Of a stretch of DNA of 64,000 bases, positions 4,623 to 36,968 are shown one piece after another; the stretch's first letter is position 1; the number at the start of each line of letters is the position of its first letter. The stretch spans positions 570,299-634,298 of the forward strand of contig CBDIDP010000014.1 in NCBI GenBank assembly GCA_965277785.1, in the 5' to 3' direction. The notes below the pieces were generated by a model. The model worked only from the letters and a program-made list of their open reading frames with translations. It made no database searches and was not told the origin of the DNA. Origin of the DNA: Caulobacteraceae bacterium. Its GTDB lineage: Bacteria > Pseudomonadota > Alphaproteobacteria > Caulobacterales > Caulobacteraceae. A program made the position numbers and the translations under genes.

Positions 4623-7600
4623 TCAGGTTCCGTCGAGCAGGCGGGCCACGAGGGCGTCGATCCGGCCGGAGACGCCGTGTTCGCGCAGCTGATCGCGCAC
4701 GATCCGCCGCGCGCGGGCGAACGGGATGCCGTCGACGAACTCGATCTCCGCCGTCAGCCCCTCCGACTCGCGTCCGGCGTTGGAGAGTTCGGCGTGCAGG
4801 GCCGATGTGGCGGAGAAGCGCGGGATGGGCAGGGTGAACATCACCTTGTCGAAGTGACGAGCGCCGAAAAGCCCGCGCGATTGGCGATCCGCGACCCGAC
4901 CCCGCGCTTCTTCGGAATTGAGGATCGCGATTAGAAAGTAGGCTTCGTCCTCACTGTCGGGAACGGCCCAATAGAGCATGTGGTCGATGACACCGCTGTC
5001 GTGGCGCAAGATGCACGCGGCGGGGTGTGTCCCCGCTTTCGAGTAGACCACGCGAAGGGGTGAAATCGGAAACTGCGCTCCCAGTTCGTTGTGATAGTTC
5101 CATCGCTCGACCAGCGACATCCTGTCGGCGCTGTGCTCTCGCCAGACAGGCTCCGCGCTCCGCAACCAGGCGCCCAGACCGGACAGCCCGAGGTCGGCCG
5201 CTCCTTTGGCATCGATCATCTGCCCGTTGGCGTGGGTCGGAATCACGCCCTCGAACGCTCGCCAGACCCGGTAGGGCAAAATGCTCTCGCCGAGATAGAC
5301 GGGCCGCAGATACTCCGCCTCGACCGGGTGCTGGATCGCCGGCAAATCCTTCCATGGGCTCTTTTCGAGAGAGGTTCGTCGACTGGCGACCAACGGCGAC
5401 GACCTCGACATGCCAAGACGACCTTGGGATTTGCGTTCGACCAGACACAACATTCGCGGAAACAGGCTCGCACCGTTCCTGAACATCTTTTGGAACTCAG
5501 AAGGTCGCGCGCCGTCCTCAGCTGGCGGCGGCGCGTTGCTCGCGCCCACCGTCAGCCGTTCGTCGGCGATCGCCTCCGAAGCGTCGCGCAGCGGCAGGCG
5601 ACCGGAGTAATGCACCATCCGCTCGGGCGTCTTCTTCCCCACCGCGCGACGGCGGCCGAACAGGACGCAGGCGGGGACTGGGAAAAGCGGTTCGACTTCG
5701 TCGAGGTCCCACGCCTCGTCCCAGGCGATCCGCGCGCTGTCGTAGCTGCCGGTGCGGAACGGCGCGAATTGGCCGCCGCGCATGACCGCGCGGGGCAGCA
5801 CGAAGGCGATCGTCCCCGCCGCGCGCAGATAGAGGCCCGCGGCGCGCACGGTGAACAGGGCGCAGAGGTCGGCCTGGGTCGCCATCTTGCCCCCGACCCA
5901 GATGCGCTCGCCGCGTGCCAGTTCGCGAAAACGGCGTTGCAGGCCGTCCGTCATATGCCGGAAGGCCAGCCACGGCGGGTTGCCGACCAGTACGCTGGCC
6001 CAGCGCACCCCTCCGGAATAGGTGAACGGCCGCGTCAGATTTCGCGCGACATAGCCCCAGATCGAGTCCCGGCCCGCCCGGCGCAGTTCGTCGTAGGTCG
6101 TATAGGTCTTGGTCAGGTCGTCGAGCGCGGTCTCCTCGTAGCCGATCAGGTCGCGCTTGTAGTGCTGCTCGATGGTCCGGACGCCCCGGCGCCGGAACTG
6201 CTCGGCGCCGTCGCCGGCCAGGGACGCGACGCGCACATTCTCGATCAGCTTGTCGAACAGCGGCCCGTCCTTGGCGAGTTGCTCGGGGAAAACCAGCACC
6301 GCCGCGCCGCTGGCGACCCCGCCGCCCGTCGCGCCACTGCCGTTGGTCACCAGATGAGCGGCCTCGCCCGGCGGGGCGGGCACGGTGATCACCAACTCCT
6401 GACGGCGCATGTAGGTCTGCACCGACAACTGCATCGCGTCGCCGAGGTAGACCGGGATCGAGAGCGTTCCGTCGCGATCGGCTAGGGCGGGGGCCAGCGC
6501 GAGTAGGTAGGTGACGCGGGCGATGATGATGGCGACGGGGTGAATATCCATGCCGGCCACGAGCCGGCAAGCCTCGACCGCGCGTTCGGTCGGTTCGAGT
6601 CCGGCGTCGACGCTTTCCGCGAGCGCGCGGCGTACGGCGTGGAACAGAAACGTGCCGGAGCCGCAGGCGGGGTCGAGCACCGTCTGTTCGAGGGGGTTTG
6701 TCACCACCTTGGCGACGATCTTCGCGGCCAGCCAGTCCGGCGTGTAGTATTCGCCGAGGCCATGGCGCTGGTCGCGGTCGATCAGGGATTCATACAGGAT
6801 CTTCAGCACGTCGATCTTCACCGCGCGCAGCCGGAACCGTCCGACGTGGCGCGCGAGGCGGCGGACGAGATCGGGGCCGCCCGGCGCCAAGAGGATCCAG
6901 TCGAAGAAGTCGCTCTCCACCGCGCCGACGATCCCCGCCTCGCTGAAGATGCGGCCGGAGAGGATGGCAGCCGGATCGTCGTCCTCGACCTCCATCACCC
7001 GCGCGGCGATGGATTTAGCGACGATCACCAGGAAGGTGTGCTGCAGCCACAGCTCGTCGTCATCGACATCCCGGCCATGGACCAGGGTGAGGAGCTGCGA
7101 CCATAGTTGTCGTTGAAGCGAGGCGGTGGGGTGTTCCGCCACCGCTGCCCACGCCCGCAACAACCCCGCCTTCGCCCGCAGGAAGGCGATGCTCTCGTGG
7201 CCGAGTTCGGCGATGACGTTGAGGGCGTCCGGCTCGATCTGGGCCTTGGCGGCGACCGCGCCGTCGAGCCAGGCGAGCAGGGCGTCGGGATTGCGCGGGT
7301 CGGTCTTGTAGGCGCGCAGCAGGAACGGCGCGCCGGCGCGCATTTCATAGGCTTCCCATTCCAGCCCATCGGTCACCACACCGACGAACAGTTCGCCCGT
7401 GGCGGCCTCGCGCTCCGGGAGGTAGCGCCCTAGTTCTTCCAGGGCGTCGCCGCGCTCGCGGGGCAGGTTGGACTTGAACTCCAGGACGGTGCGGCCGAGC
7501 AGGGCGTCGATGCGGCCCCGCGCCTCGACCACCCGCACCTCGTGGGCGATGTCGTGCAGTTCCGCGCCCAAACCTTCGGTCAGAAGGGTGGAGACCAGGG

Positions 7601-33114: not shown

Positions 33115-33173
33115 GGGGAGGGCTCCGGTAGGTCGGGTTGATGCGTCATAGCGCGCTCCAGGGCTCTCTTCCA

Positions 33174-33281
33174 CTTCTCCCGTAGGGAGAAGGAGGGGCC
33201 TACGCGCCCTCTCGCGCGTGGGAAGATGAGGGGTTACGGAGTTCCAGAACTTGGCGCGGCGTTCGGCTACACCGTAGCCCC
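33174..33281. repeat. Family A repeat lacking its right arm
   Basis: CTTCTCCCGTAGGGAGAAGG...GAGGGGTTACGG...ACACCGTAGCCCC, then similarity to the 12337 copy stops. Confidence 0.75.
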
Positions 33282-33303
33282 AGCCTGCAGTGCGATCGCG
33301 GCG

Positions 33304-33771
33304 CTAGCCGAACAGCGTGTCGTCTTCCGGCAACGGGGCGATCGGCCGTTCGAAGTGGAACATCCCTTCAGGTCCATTGTAGGTGACGATGAAGTGCTTG
33401 AGAAACGAGCGCCCGAGCAACACGCGGCTGGAGGGGTGAGACATGCTCAACGCGTGGAAGCGCGTGAGTTCGTCGAACTCAAGCGCGGGAACGATGAGGC
33501 GGCCAAGGTAGACCGATGCTTGTAGCCGCGCGTCGCCGACGACTTCGAGGCTCGTGTTCCGATCGATCAGCTTGAGCCCAGCCTTCGCTGCAAGTCGATC
33601 GTCGATACACACCGTTGAAGCGCCCGTGTCGATGAGACCCTGAGCAACTATTCCCGCGAAGGCGGAACCAGCGGCGCATATTTGAATCTGGATGATCGGG
33701 CCGGTATCGGCCAACCCGCTTTGTCGCTGAACAGCCGACCCGCCGTCCGCGCCGAAAACCGGCCGGCGCAC
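33304..33771 (-). CDS. Retropepsin-like (clan AA) aspartic protease
   Basis: GLIDTGAS catalytic motif and VLLGRSFL psi-loop motif; GTG start 3 nt after the upstream stop. Confidence 0.8.
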   Translation of the reverse strand: MRRPVFGADGGSAVQRQSGLADTGPIIQIQICAAGSAFAGIVAQGLIDTGASTVCIDDRLAAKAGLKLIDRNTSLEVVGDARLQASVYLGRLIVPALEFDELTRFHALSMSHPSSRVLLGRSFLKHFIVTYNGPEGMFHFERPIAPLPEDDTLFG

Positions 33772-33774
33772 CCG

Positions 33775-33999
33775 TCAGCCGACCGAGATGAACGGAATGA
33801 ACTCCGGCTCCGGGTCGGTGTGCCGGATCAGGAAGTCGGCGTCGGGGAACTTGGCAATGGCGAAATGAGCGGCGGCGTCGAATTCGGCGAAATGCCCTTG
33901 GGGTTCGGAGCCGACGACAACCACCCAGCTCGGACCCCAGGTCGAGCGGTATTGTCCGACATTACGCTCGAAAGCGTCGATTTCCGTCTGTAGGGCCAT
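33775..33999 (-). CDS. 74-aa acidic small protein (DUF5678-like) coupled to the retropepsin
   Basis: ALQTEIDAFERN...WVVVVG...F..F..A...AIAKFP..DFLIRH; GGCGGGGA before ATG. Confidence 0.65.
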   Translation of the reverse strand: MALQTEIDAFERNVGQYRSTWGPSWVVVVGSEPQGHFAEFDAAAHFAIAKFPDADFLIRHTDPEPEFIPFISVG

Positions 34000-34110
34000 T
34001 CCCCGCCTCGCCAACTTTGGGCCGCTCGCGAATCAGGCTTACCACCAGTCGCGCGATTGAAGAATCCCTGCTTCGGCTAATTCGGTTCGACTTGCCCGCC
34101 GCCCAAGCGT

Positions 34111-34370
34111 GCGGCCTAGACGTGGGACCGCCCGAAGAAGACCAACGTCAGCCTGCGCCGCGCCAAACAGTTCGCCCTGATCCAGCCCACCACCAAGATC
34201 CGCATCGACCTCGGCCTGAACCTCCACGGCCGCCAACCCGGCCGGGAGATTGGAGGAGTCGGGCAGCTTCCACGCCATGTTCACCCACCGGGTGAAGCTG
34301 GGCGCGGCGGCGGAGGTGGACGACGAGGTGCGGGGACGGTTGCGGGAGGCTTATGGGGAGACGGGGGTGA
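34111..34370 (+). pseudogene. 5'-truncated, frameshifted DUF5655/DUF4287-like gene remnant
   Basis: PKKTNVSLRRAKQFALIQPTTKIRIDLGLNL, then in the next frame GRLEESGSFHAMFTHRVKL...VDDEVRGRLREAY; TAG at 34117-34119 in the first frame. Confidence 0.7.
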
Positions 34371-34382
34371 GGTCTCGCGTCT

Positions 34383-35954
34383 TCAAATCCGCATCGAAGC
34401 AGGAATCTTTTTCAGGTCTTCCTCGCGGAGGATGGCGCGCCGGATAGAACGATAATCATCCTTAGGAACCTCGGCAGCTTCGTCGTCATCAACAGTGAAA
34501 AGCGCCTCCGGCGCCCGCGTCGTGTTGATTAATTCAACATAGCAGCCATCGTCAATCTTGTATACGTCATAACGACTACCGGGTTCATCGTTCGATGATA
34601 CGTTGCGTTTGAGTATGTGAAGAAGACGAGCATCAAAAAGCTGATCGATTATGAGGTGCCTCGAATTGCTCGCATATAAGAAAGCTCTAGCTCTCCTCTT
34701 CCCAATTACTTCATCAACAATCATCGCAAGGGCATCTTGCAATTCGGGCGTGGTGCGCGTGATCGCCGCCTTGTCCTGCTGGTACCAATCTCGCGCTGCC
34801 GTTCTCACGTCATTAACCGCTATAAGTTGGCCAAAGGCTCGCGAGACTGCTGCTGAACAGAGATTGAGCGCGTCTCGAGGCACTCCCTCTACCGCTCGAA
34901 CAAATTCTTCGAAGGCGGGCCATTGTGTGAATAGTTTACCAATTAAAATATCCGGATTATGTATTGACTCAAGGGAATCCACAATATTCTTATAATGTCT
35001 ATAAAGCAGTGTCTTGAAGAAATCGGTAGCCTTGGTCTGATCGTTATCGAAGACTAGGAAGTTATCTAAATTCACGTCAGCGAAAATATCCGCACCGAGT
35101 TCCAGCCCCACATACTCACCGTTTGGACGTTGAAGACTAAACACTGATCGATGTTCGATCGCCGCAATTTTCAACGTTACGTTGCGAACTGTGACCACAG
35201 TCCGCCGAAGAAGGTCCGCCAAAAATGGCTGAAGATCAAATGGCACTTCGCTCCACTCATCAAGCAGAAGCCAGACATGATCAACGTTTAGGCGTTCTAT
35301 CAAGTCTCTTAGTGACGCGGCTATATTTCCAAAGTCGAGGTGCAGTCTAGAGTCACCCTCAAGAGAAGACGTTTCTTCGATCGATGAATTTGATTTTGAA
35401 CCAAATCCAAACTTTGCGCTTATGTCGCTGATGCTGCCCTTCAAGCCCCCCTCAAGAGAACGTTCGCGCCCTGCAATAGCTTTTGATGACTCCGTCGCTG
35501 TGCCGGTAATCCGGAAGGTAGAGATAGACTGCCGTAGATTATCTAGCAGGAGCGTAAGCTGGCCGGGATCAGGGTGGCCGTCAATTTGTTCAATTGCTAG
35601 ATTTGTTAACTCCGAGTGTATCGCCGTTAAAACGTCAACTATAAGGGTAGCTGCTCGGGTGGAAAGAGTTTGGGACGGATCGGAATAAATTGATGAGCTC
35701 GAACCTATAGTTCTCAAATCCATATATATTGGCAGTTCATTTTGCGTCACGACGTGTTCCGCAAGATATTTCAGTGCGTGGGTCTTGCCGGTGCCACGTC
35801 GTCCATAAATAACTTGGTTATTTCGCGTCGACATCATATCAAATAAAGGTTCAGAGTCTACAAACGTGGCTACTAAGAGCTCGTCGTTCGTTTTTTCCGC
35901 TCGCTTGCTAATGCCAATGAGTGCTCGATGAATTCCTTTGATGTCTTCGTCCAA
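34383..35954 (-). CDS. Low-GC P-loop NTPase (ORC/CDC6-like or STAND-like), function unknown
   Basis: Walker A IYGRRGTGKT, Walker B LLLDEWSE; 523 aa; GC about 45-50% by eye; TTG start. Confidence 0.8.
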   Translation of the reverse strand: MDEDIKGIHRALIGISKRAEKTNDELLVATFVDSEPLFDMMSTRNNQVIYGRRGTGKTHALKYLAEHVVTQNELPIYMDLRTIGSSSSIYSDPSQTLSTRAATLIVDVLTAIHSELTNLAIEQIDGHPDPGQLTLLLDNLRQSISTFRITGTATESSKAIAGRERSLEGGLKGSISDISAKFGFGSKSNSSIEETSSLEGDSRLHLDFGNIAASLRDLIERLNVDHVWLLLDEWSEVPFDLQPFLADLLRRTVVTVRNVTLKIAAIEHRSVFSLQRPNGEYVGLELGADIFADVNLDNFLVFDNDQTKATDFFKTLLYRHYKNIVDSLESIHNPDILIGKLFTQWPAFEEFVRAVEGVPRDALNLCSAAVSRAFGQLIAVNDVRTAARDWYQQDKAAITRTTPELQDALAMIVDEVIGKRRARAFLYASNSRHLIIDQLFDARLLHILKRNVSSNDEPGSRYDVYKIDDGCYVELINTTRAPEALFTVDDDEAAEVPKDDYRSIRRAILREEDLKKIPASMRI

Positions 35955-36032
35955 CGTTCAGGCGCTTTCAGCTGACGATCTTCTTCAATTAGCACGCGGT
36001 GCGGTTCTGTTGAGAATCGCTCAAATTTTAGG

Positions 36033-36968
36033 TCAAGCCACCCTAACCACACCCGCCCCGCCAACTCCACACTCCAGGCTCTCCCGATCCCATCGCCTCC
36101 CATCCGCCGCCGCCGCATAGGTCGCGTTGAGGAACCCCATCACCGCCGCCTCCGGGTCCGCCGCCGCCCGGGCCGCCGCCCACGGCAGCACATACTCCCC
36201 CAACGCCGCGTCGAACCGCGCGCCCTCCACCGCGATCTCCGCCTCCCGGAACCCCGGCGGTTCGGGGTAGGCGTAGCTGTAGAACACCGCCTCCTCCGCG
36301 CCCGGACCACCGGGCCAGAAGCCGGCGCTGCTGACTTCGTGGGAGTAGGCTTCGCGGGCGACGGCGTCGGGCAGGTGGGGGATGCCGCCGGGATGGGGCG
36401 GCGCGCGGCGGCCGGAGAAGCGGGTCACGGCGAGGTCGAAGCTGCCCCAGAAGAAGTGTGCGGGGCTGGCCTTGCCGAGGAAGGCGGTACGGAAGGTCTT
36501 CAAGATGCGGTCGGCGGTGAGCAGCACGCGGTGAAAATTGCGCGCGACAGCGGGGTCGTAGGCGCGCGGCGCGGTGTCGTCGCGGAACGGCGTCGCCTCG
36601 GGCAGTTCGTTCGGCGCGCCGTCGATGGTCACCGGCACGCCGAGGTCGCGCAGGGTGTGGAGCAAGCGATCGTGGAACGCCGCCACCGTCAGGCCGGGGA
36701 TCGCGAACGCCGCGGCCTCCGCCTCCGTCCGCACCCGCAGGGCGCCGTCGATCAGGTCGAACTCGACATCGAACGCCCGATCGCCGTGCGGGACGAGGCC
36801 GGTGGTCAGGCCGCGCGGCGAGACATAGAGCGGCACGCTCCAGGAATGGTTCAGCCACGGCGTTTGGCTGAGGCGCGCCTTGCCGACGATCTGGGTGAAC
36901 AGGTGCAGGGCGCGAAGGGTCTCGGCGCTCGACGTGTAATCGAGTTCGGGCCAGGCGGGCGACGGCAT
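36033..36968 (-). CDS. DUF5996 family protein
   Basis: QIVGK.RL..TPWLNHSW, FWGSFDLAVTRFSGR.AP.HPGG, AYSHEVSSAGFWPG. Confidence 0.85.
   Translation of the reverse strand: MPSPAWPELDYTSSAETLRALHLFTQIVGKARLSQTPWLNHSWSVPLYVSPRGLTTGLVPHGDRAFDVEFDLIDGALRVRTEAEAAAFAIPGLTVAAFHDRLLHTLRDLGVPVTIDGAPNELPEATPFRDDTAPRAYDPAVARNFHRVLLTADRILKTFRTAFLGKASPAHFFWGSFDLAVTRFSGRRAPPHPGGIPHLPDAVAREAYSHEVSSAGFWPGGPGAEEAVFYSYAYPEPPGFREAEIAVEGARFDAALGEYVLPWAAARAAADPEAAVMGFLNATYAAAADGRRWDRESLECGVGGAGVVRVA

Follow-up and report, generated by a model that had tools for sequence, protein, structure and literature searches.

A solitary AT-rich gene for an ORC/Cdc6-like AAA+ ATPase in a Caulobacteraceae genome, and its possible role in immunity

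What might a single AT-rich ATPase gene do when it stands by itself in a GC-rich bacterial genome? The question is raised by a stretch of 64,000 nucleotides from a Caulobacteraceae bacterium (GenBank assembly GCA_965277785.1, contig CBDIDP010000014.1, positions 570,299 to 634,298), referred to here as the window, which carries on its reverse strand a gene for a P-loop ATPase of 523 amino acids (aa). An initial annotation, made from the sequence of the window, had taken the product for a recently acquired, ORC/CDC6- or STAND-like component of a conflict system, acting alone or with an unlinked partner. The product, here called the ORC-like protein, belongs to a prokaryotic family of ORC-CDC6-like AAA+ ATPases, and its gene is horizontally acquired, mobile and accessory. 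For its function we lean toward a self-contained, one-gene form of immunity against phages or plasmids, the mechanism of which is set out below in conditional terms.

Family, architecture and composition

The ORC-like protein matches the Pfam family PF24389 ("ORC-CDC6-like") with 54.3 bits against a gathering score of 27 (E = 1.3e-14), residues 17-267 aligning to positions 6-255 of the 571-position profile. The N-terminal helices, P-loop, helical insert and Walker B are common to protein and profile, whereas the Pfam model does not extend to the lid, winged helix and tail of the subfamily. The precomputed Pfam label of relatives is the same, and RefSeq and UniRef name several of them "ORC-CDC6 family AAA ATPase". 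PF24389 is a catalogued prokaryotic family without an assigned function, to which the ORC-like protein adds one member. A second profile, NCBIfam NF047389 ("P-loop ATPase, Sll1717 family"), aligns with the N-terminal half alone (residues 19-233, E = 5e-14), and its 52.2 bits lie under the curated cut-off of 75. At E <= 1e-3 this profile is matched by 72 of 73 relatives, the best at 9e-17.

Conservation was measured on an alignment of these 73 relatives (A1), and the same alignment was fed to AlphaFold2 (AF2), which gave a model with a predicted local distance difference test score (pLDDT) of 87.7 and a predicted template modelling score of 0.86. A Foldseek search of the PDB with this model returned archaeal Orc1/Cdc6 bound to origin DNA as the best matches (2qby_A and 2v1u_A, E = 2e-6, about 500 columns). 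Further matches were human, fly and yeast ORC/Cdc6 subunits (7jpo), archaeal SSO1545, RdrA of the RADAR system, and RuvBL1/2, in which a domain likewise separates Walker A from Walker B. A search of PDB sequences gave just hints at the P-loop and lid (E >= 0.04), and a library of viral structures gave generic clamp-loader matches and nothing else. The ORC/CDC6-like assignment of the initial annotation is thus borne out by a Pfam score above the gathering threshold and by the best structural matches. Its alternative, a STAND-like protein, fell away. No match to NACHT or NB-ARC reached threshold, the scores for NACHT (E = 0.13), nSTAND3 (E = 0.13) and nSTAND5 (E = 0.035) lying far below the Pfam cut-offs, and the Pfam scan found no TPR, WD40 or LRR repeats that could serve as a sensor and no effector domain.

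From the N to the C terminus the model consists of N-terminal helices; strand 1, the P-loop and helix 1; strand 2; a helical hairpin (residues 97-144); an insert (residues 147-206); helix 2 with Walker B; the remainder of the AAA+ core; the lid; two linker helices; a winged-helix-like domain; and a tail. About 120 residues separate strand 2 from Walker B, and the intact Walker A followed by a large insert that the initial annotation described is indeed present. The core for ATP binding and hydrolysis is intact, with both Walker motifs (which fit the patterns GxxGxGK[ST] and hhhhDE) and a sensor-2 arginine. R360 is the sensor-2 arginine of the lid; residues 345-386 of the family profile align to the sensor-2 lid region of the clamp-loader gamma/tau subunits, a hint with non-significant E values of 0.26-0.8. 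Close to sensor 1, R269 is the sole candidate for an arginine finger (box VII); with 86% conservation it falls short of invariance, and no canonical finger can be assigned.

An initiator-specific or helix-extension-helix insert after strand 2 is a feature of the ORC/Cdc6 clade (PMC12839542). Two helices of the AF2 model, residues 97-126 and 130-144, come after the strand at residues 74-79, and judged by this position the segment of residues 87-146 probably corresponds to the clade-specific insert. The C-terminal domain is a predicted winged helix, as supported by its topology in the model (strand 424-428, helix 434-441, hairpin 445-453/461-467 and helix 469-476) and by the Foldseek alignments to Orc1/Cdc6 on DNA, which span the whole protein; the initial annotation had called this region compatible with such a fold. 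Among the relatives, conservation is highest in the P-loop core and the winged helix, and besides the invariant residues listed in Table 1, Q242, D297, F342 and K395 are invariant as well. Scans with Pfam, PADLOC, NCBIfam and PHROGs gave no match to a nuclease, to TIR or to any other effector domain. The highest Kyte-Doolittle mean over 19 residues is 1.32, which predicts no transmembrane segment. Both results agree with the earlier reading of the protein as one that has no such domains.

The insert at residues 147-206 behaves differently from the rest of the protein. Its conservation is the lowest of any region (mean top-residue frequency 0.26), yet its length is steady at 54-68 aa; it is beta-rich or disordered and poorly predicted in the AF2 model, with pLDDT values below 50 for residues 152-199. 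Two Rhodopseudomonas proteins that are 80% identical overall are 32% identical in the insert; between them the nonsynonymous rate (dN) reaches 0.80 there and 0.10 over the rest of the protein, and the synonymous rate (dS) is saturated. Such values mean that selection outside the insert is strongly purifying. Within the insert, either diversifying selection or loose constraint would account for the pattern; since dS is saturated in both usable pairs, dN/dS does not separate positive selection from the latter.

The composition of the gene sets it apart from its surroundings. The window was scanned for GC content in 1-kb and 100-bp steps and, gene by gene, for GC content at third codon positions (GC3). 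The ORC-like gene has a GC content of 47.5%, the window mean being 68.9%, and the three lowest 1-kb windows of the whole 64 kb (0.47-0.478; mean 0.689, standard deviation 0.041) all fall within it. GC3 is 0.47 in the gene versus 0.85-0.89 in the flanking host genes (glyoxalase and DUF5996). The low-GC patch is one gene wide, as the GC content is back at 60-70% some 20 bp beyond the stop codon on one side and some 80 bp ahead of the start on the other. The description of this gene as the most compositionally foreign one in the window, with no adjacent partner of the same GC content, therefore stands.

The public gene call for the protein (P0002) has 484 aa and begins at M40. An in-frame TGA lies two codons upstream of the TTG start of the longer reading frame. 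The TTG start is preferred because relatives align to the protein from residues 3-10 onward and because R18, F31 and V32 are nearly invariant; on this comparison the public call is too short and the TTG start the better model. A promoter and a ribosome-binding site of the gene's own presumably lie in the spacer upstream of the start. A consensus scan of this spacer found no sigma-70-like site, and no upstream motif is common to the gene and 20 relatives, no 8-mer occurring in more than 4 of the 21 upstream regions. The sequence of the gene is present in just four sequencing runs, which are DNA or unclassified. For the host genome the outcome is an ordinary annotation upgrade, from a hypothetical protein to an ORC-CDC6 family ATPase that is a probable defence gene, with its start corrected.

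Distribution, mobility and persistence of low GC content

Of the 61 genomes of its genus, 2 carry the ORC-like gene. The second copy is 58% identical, occupies a different site and adjoins an IS110 element. No copy was found at E <= 1e-20 in 300 other genomes sampled across the class. The gene is horizontally acquired, mobile and accessory. A role as the cellular replication initiator was considered and rejected, given that the host has its own DnaA, that the gene is confined to these two genomes among the 61 and is missing from the 300, and that its contexts vary; by the same findings it is no housekeeping gene, the outcome that the initial annotation had named as fatal to its proposal. Paralogues in the host genome were likewise rejected, as the two other PF24389 matches are the same DnaA gene at two contig ends. 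Since this dnaA is found both where contig C13 of the host assembly (G000) ends and where contig C1 begins, these contigs overlap or adjoin in the region of the replication origin.

A wider view of the family comes from a HMMER search of 1.84 billion representative proteins, which found relatives in 1,520 clusters of 50% identity at E <= 1e-3 and in 463 at E <= 1e-30. Nearly all of these are 510-540 aa long and align end to end. A word-indexed search found more than 3,000 relatives. Named relatives occur in Rhodopseudomonas, Mesorhizobium, Methylocystis, Brucella, Chelatococcus, Novosphingobium, Stellaceae and Caulobacterales, and those of Burkholderia glumae and Acetobacter vaccinii are borne on plasmids. 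A branch of about 650 aa (P0142, P0145, P0146, P0173; loci L055 and L056), which occurs in Actinomycetota and has one member from Solirubrobacteraceae, carries a C-terminal FHA domain and is also solo. The phosphopeptide-binding FHA domain hints that this branch may be regulated by Ser/Thr phosphorylation.

In 12 of 13 reference-genome loci the relatives form one-gene patches of low GC content (42-52%, in hosts of 60-70%). All-against-all BLAST of the flanking open reading frames (ORFs) from 16 loci detected no conserved partner gene, such sharing as there was being pairwise and lineage-specific, and none was seen in further loci with annotated neighbours that were inspected. The initial annotation had allowed that homologues might always be partnered, in which case the window gene would be a broken remnant; it is no such remnant, as relatives are full length and no neighbour is conserved in these loci.

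The unit that moves can be seen most clearly in Rhodopseudomonas (L001), where comparison with an empty site reveals a cassette of 1,725 bp with 49% GC in place of an intergenic spacer of 122 bp. The cassette has about 45 bp downstream of the gene, without an imperfect palindrome. At the window gene the stretch of about 33115-36043 is non-syntenic even with the closest relatives in the genus, and no exact insertion boundary could be drawn. A transposon or insertion sequence (IS) was rejected as the carrier, as neither the window gene nor the L001 cassette has convincing terminal inverted or direct repeats and the spacer was replaced with no target duplication. An integron cassette was rejected too: the short stretches of sequence that were read, with no dedicated attC model run, contained no attC-like site, and the GC content is that of the host from about 20 bp past the stop. 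In two loci a gene for a small serine recombinase (Resolvase plus HTH_7) precedes the ORC-like gene by about 100-150 bp, and in a third locus one lies within about 2 kb (L005:5523-5855, L008:5265-5894 and L007:3785-4348). This recombinase may be one vehicle that moves the cassette.

Whether the low GC content reflects a recent arrival is a separate matter. In a metagenome-assembled genome (MAG) of Stellaceae (L003) and in an alphaproteobacterial MAG (L010) the ORC-like gene occupies the same site, immediately downstream of mutS (6001-7560). The MutS proteins of the two are 82% identical (dS 0.80; GC3 0.81 and 0.88), and the ORC-like proteins are 83% identical with dS saturated and GC3 of 0.42 and 0.50. 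If the gene was inherited together with mutS, its low GC content is not simply a sign of recent arrival, and this one same-site pair suggests that AT-richness persists over long residence in GC-rich genomes. The initial annotation had called the gene recently acquired. Horizontal acquisition holds; recency may be too simple, in view of a pair that has diverged like mutS. In L010, a long-read MAG, the copy can be read through only with two or more changes of frame (L010:5940-7600) and is either a pseudogene or affected by homopolymer sequencing errors. In Alphaproteobacteria, proteins of the MucR/Ros family bind AT-rich DNA in the manner of H-NS. One such protein is encoded by the host of the window, and silencer-dependent control of the ORC-like gene by a MucR-type protein is possible. 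A broader question raised by these observations is whether low GC content in defence genes is always a sign of recent transfer.

Genomic contexts and possible function

Several relatives reside among genes of conflict. On plasmid bglu_4p of B. glumae the gene lies 1.2 kb from a complete Gabija system (GajA, 817 bits; GajB, 691 bits) and a gamma-mobile-trio element adjoins. On an integrase/PrimPol island of Methylocystis a complete Lamassu system (LmuA, LmuC, LmuB) is 2.2 kb away and a ParDE pair is present. The plasmid copy in Acetobacter has a PtuA-like (Septu-like) ATPase and IS elements nearby. Copies in Chelatococcus (near the lysis genes) and in Brucella intermedia (inside the tail module) are prophage morons. 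As far as computation goes, these contexts support the earlier idea of a conflict-system component, and we regard the ORC-like protein as probably, though far from certainly, a self-contained, one-gene ATPase of anti-phage or anti-plasmid immunity.

In mechanistic terms the protein would act as an ATP-dependent switch. The variable insert, possibly together with the winged helix, would recognize DNA or protein of the invader, and the protein would then oligomerize on DNA in the manner of ORC/Cdc6. The output would be a block of the invader's replication or packaging, or arrest of the cell. This last step is the least certain one and the weak point of the scheme, because the protein has no effector domain. 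That recognition, ATP-dependent oligomerization on DNA and such an output all apply in precisely this form is a tentative suggestion, and a rather unlikely one as a whole. More speculative still, and doubtful, is a scheme of effector-less immunity by mimicry of a replication initiator. Here the winged helix would load the protein onto origins, ends or intermediates of the invader, the insert would tune this choice, and oligomerization alone would block replication or packaging; AT-richness would itself be selected, with a MucR-type protein silencing the gene until infection, which would account for a GC3 of 0.42-0.50 in a copy as diverged as the mutS beside it, in a genome where GC3 exceeds 0.8.

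A precedent for immunity in this format is DS-41 (AAA2, WP_033812887.1), a validated single-gene anti-phage protein of 502 aa from E. coli, which was described in the DefensePredictor study and protects E. coli from some BASEL phages (PMC13092281). Several findings weigh against the immunity proposal, and some of them concern this very precedent. Membership in DS-41, for which the bar is the NCBIfam model NF053860 (DS41_1_antiphage; 448 positions, cut-off 370 bits), was rejected, as the ORC-like protein scores 19.3 bits (E = 4.7e-4) over its N-terminal 190 residues alone. The family hidden Markov model (HMM) misses three DS-41 orthologues that the NCBIfam model finds, and an hhalign comparison of the family with DS-41 aligns the Walker B region alone (33 columns, 74% probability). 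PADLOC 2.0 has no model with a convincing score for the protein. A literature search found no experimental work on a member of the subfamily, and phage genome records yielded no relative. Several copies, arguably including that of the window, sit between housekeeping genes and have no defence neighbours. Examples of such solitary sites are the copy between prfC and an anthrone oxygenase-like gene in R. palustris BisB5, that between mutS and an SDR gene in Stellaceae, and one in another genome between a permease gene and DUF1467/RNase J/nuo. The absence of an effector domain leaves the killing or blocking step speculative. Finally, the winged helix is the most conserved domain, which fits a constant ligand better than a fast-evolving target on an invader.

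The last two points invite other explanations. Were the protein a sensor or switch that works with an unlinked effector of the host (a nuclease or protease, for instance, or the machinery of replication or repair), it would need no effector domain of its own. The subset of relatives with a C-terminal FHA domain implies protein-protein signalling, and ATPases of the ORC/Cdc6 clade serve as DNA sensors or scaffolds in BREX, HINPO and capture systems. Such a partner would have to be universal, however, as the single gene moves among Alphaproteobacteria, Betaproteobacteria and Actinomycetota, and no co-occurring gene emerged from the 16 clustered loci or the others inspected. In addition DS-41, a remote relative of equal size, works alone in E. 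coli. An unlinked effector is, on this evidence, unlikely. A constant ligand would suit a selfish or regulatory DNA-binding protein with no role in immunity, be it nucleoid-associated, transcriptional or of the addiction type. The very high conservation of the winged helix and tail, the persistence of AT-richness despite an apparently long residence in one lineage and the missing effector domain all fit this explanation. The rare and patchy distribution, the recurrence beside Gabija, Lamassu and Septu-like genes, the hypervariable insert, which is typical of conflict proteins, and the lack of a toxin-antitoxin-like partner make it very improbable.

The occurrence of relatives on plasmids, in prophages and on the integrase/PrimPol island would also be expected of a protein that maintains mobile elements, as a replication initiator, a helicase loader or an ATPase of partition or target selection (as are IstB, TnsC or the Orc1 of archaeal plasmids), the window copy then being leftover cargo. 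The fold is that of a replication initiator, there are weak profile matches to Hda, DnaA, IstB and orc1/cdc6, and the small serine recombinase is near the gene in three loci (adjacent in two, within about 2 kb in one). Yet many copies are solitary and intergenic, with no origin, transposase, integrase or repeats, and are nonetheless intact under strong purifying selection. The prophage copies occupy moron positions among lysis and tail genes rather than the replication module, no phage genome record has a relative, and typing assigns the B. glumae plasmid a separate replicon. Maintenance of a mobile element is for these reasons distinctly improbable, and one-gene immunity is retained as the preferred function.

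A last alternative arises from the neighbourhood of the window gene, the features of which are collected in Table 1. Downstream of the ORC-like gene is a gene for a retropepsin-like aspartyl protease, and the two could form a sensor-plus-protease system. Both lie within the non-syntenic accessory patch, and the neighbour matches protease families (gag-asp_proteas, 35 bits, and Asp_protease_2). Their GC3 values differ, with 0.74-0.76 for the protease gene and the ORF beside it versus 0.47 for the ATPase gene, a remnant on the opposite strand intervenes, and no locus of a relative that was inspected has a protease neighbour. A two-gene system of this kind is effectively refuted. The 79-aa ORF that follows the protease gene has no family match, belongs to the same non-syntenic patch and could make up a small two-gene accessory module with it. 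The intervening remnant is of the DUF5655 type, frame-shifted and split over two overlapping frames. It has 82% DNA identity to an apparently intact region in a relative from the genus (G016) and ends about 20 bp from the stop of the ORC-like gene, the insertion of which, or a linked deletion, may have destroyed the DUF5655 gene. Further downstream is an intergenic repeat of about 65-75 bp that looks like an element of the REP/MITE (repetitive extragenic palindromic/miniature inverted-repeat transposable element) type. Many copies are found in host contigs C1, C3, C13, C14 and C17 and in the genus relatives G001, G010 and G011, the copies being 80-88% identical.

Table 1. Coordinates in the window of the ORC-like gene, of the segments of its product and of neighbouring features
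Feature	Position	Strand	Remarks
ORC-CDC6-like AAA+ ATPase, coding sequence	34383..35954	-	523 aa; TTG start, TGA stop; from ORF list and PF24389
Upstream spacer, 78 bp, lower GC	35955..36032	-	between stop of DUF5996 gene and TTG start
Walker A/P-loop GRRGTGKTH, residues 51-59	35778..35804	-	G51, R52, R53, G54, G56, K57 and H59 invariant in 73 relatives
Helical insert after strand 2, residues 87-146	35517..35696	-	AF2 helices 97-126 and 130-144, pLDDT 92-97
Hypervariable insert, residues 147-206	35337..35516	-	S/G/E-rich, partly disordered; conserved length; candidate specificity surface
Walker B LLLDEWS, residues 228-234	35253..35273	-	D232 and E233 invariant; W234 96% conserved
AAA+ lid, helical bundle, residues 303-378	34821..35048	-	model pLDDT >95
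Sensor-2 motif EGVPRDA, residues 356-362	34869..34889	-	E356, G357 and R360 invariant
C-terminal winged-helix-like domain, residues 421-478	34521..34694	-	R443, H446 and D468 invariant; wing RYDVYKIDxGCY
C-terminal tail motif VPxDDYRSIRRAIL, residues 496-509	34428..34469	-	P497 invariant; V496, D500, R502, R505 and L509 >=90%
DUF5655-type remnant	34017..34380	+	
Retropepsin-like aspartyl protease gene	33304..33771	-	155 aa
Protease gene and 79-aa ORF together	33304..34014	-	
Intergenic repeat	33172..33240		

Comparison with known systems

The nearest known folds are those of Orc1/Cdc6 and ORC, with which the ORC-like protein has in common an AAA+ base whose strand 2 is followed by a helical insert, a lid that bears the sensor-2 arginine, and a winged helix at the C terminus. 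It differs from them in sequence (10-14% identity; TM-scores of 0.34-0.47) and in having an additional hypervariable stretch of about 60 aa as well as a conserved tail at its C-terminal end. Unlike Orc1/Cdc6, moreover, the gene is rare, mobile and not a housekeeping gene, and the bacterial host has DnaA.

Among defence systems, the ATPase domain has a remote similarity to Mad8 of MADS (PADLOC PDLC04140), which is matched by 41 of the 73 relatives (best E = 6e-10). MADS is a multi-gene system, whereas the ORC-like gene has no other mad genes nearby. Membership in MADS was rejected, the protein scoring 18.5 bits and its gene having as neighbours DUF5996, the DUF5655 remnant and the retropepsin-like gene rather than mad genes. 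RdrA of RADAR has the AAA+ fold in common with the protein (8hrb, E = 1e-4), and with RdrA and with BrxC/BrxD of BREX it shares the idea of an ATPase as sensor or scaffold in immunity. These proteins act with linked partners (the RdrB deaminase in the one case, PglX, PglZ and others in the other), of which the ORC-like gene has none.

DS-41 resembles the ORC-like protein in format, being likewise a stand-alone P-loop ATPase of about 500 aa that has no effector domain. Its HMM is matched by 40 of the 73 relatives over the N-terminal 190 or so residues (best E = 4e-10), and two of three DS-41 orthologues touch PF24389 weakly. DS-41-like proteins have the motifs FAPRGGGKTA and VDRVDE, unlike those of the ORC-like protein. 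The DS-41 orthologues or close relatives at loci L037-L039 (genomes G576, G362 and G529, from other Pseudomonadota) are solo genes whose GC content is 45-51% where that of the genome is 61-69%, and two of the three proteins end in a Cys-rich motif that resembles a zinc ribbon. From these sequence comparisons DS-41 is best regarded as a remote superfamily relative of the same format (solo, about 500 aa and of low GC content) and not as a member of the same family; Mad8, too, is a remote relative from outside the family. Effector-less single-gene defence proteins such as DS-41 are a mechanistic blind spot, as it is not obvious how a DNA-binding ATPase alone can stop a phage or plasmid. The subfamily described here is a good entry point to this question, for it is large and has a confident AlphaFold model, invariant residues that can serve as targets of mutation and an insert that can be swapped. 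With a bare cassette of a compact 1.6-1.7 kb, it lends itself to tests in laboratory hosts and offers a tractable model for single-gene immunity of the effector-less kind.

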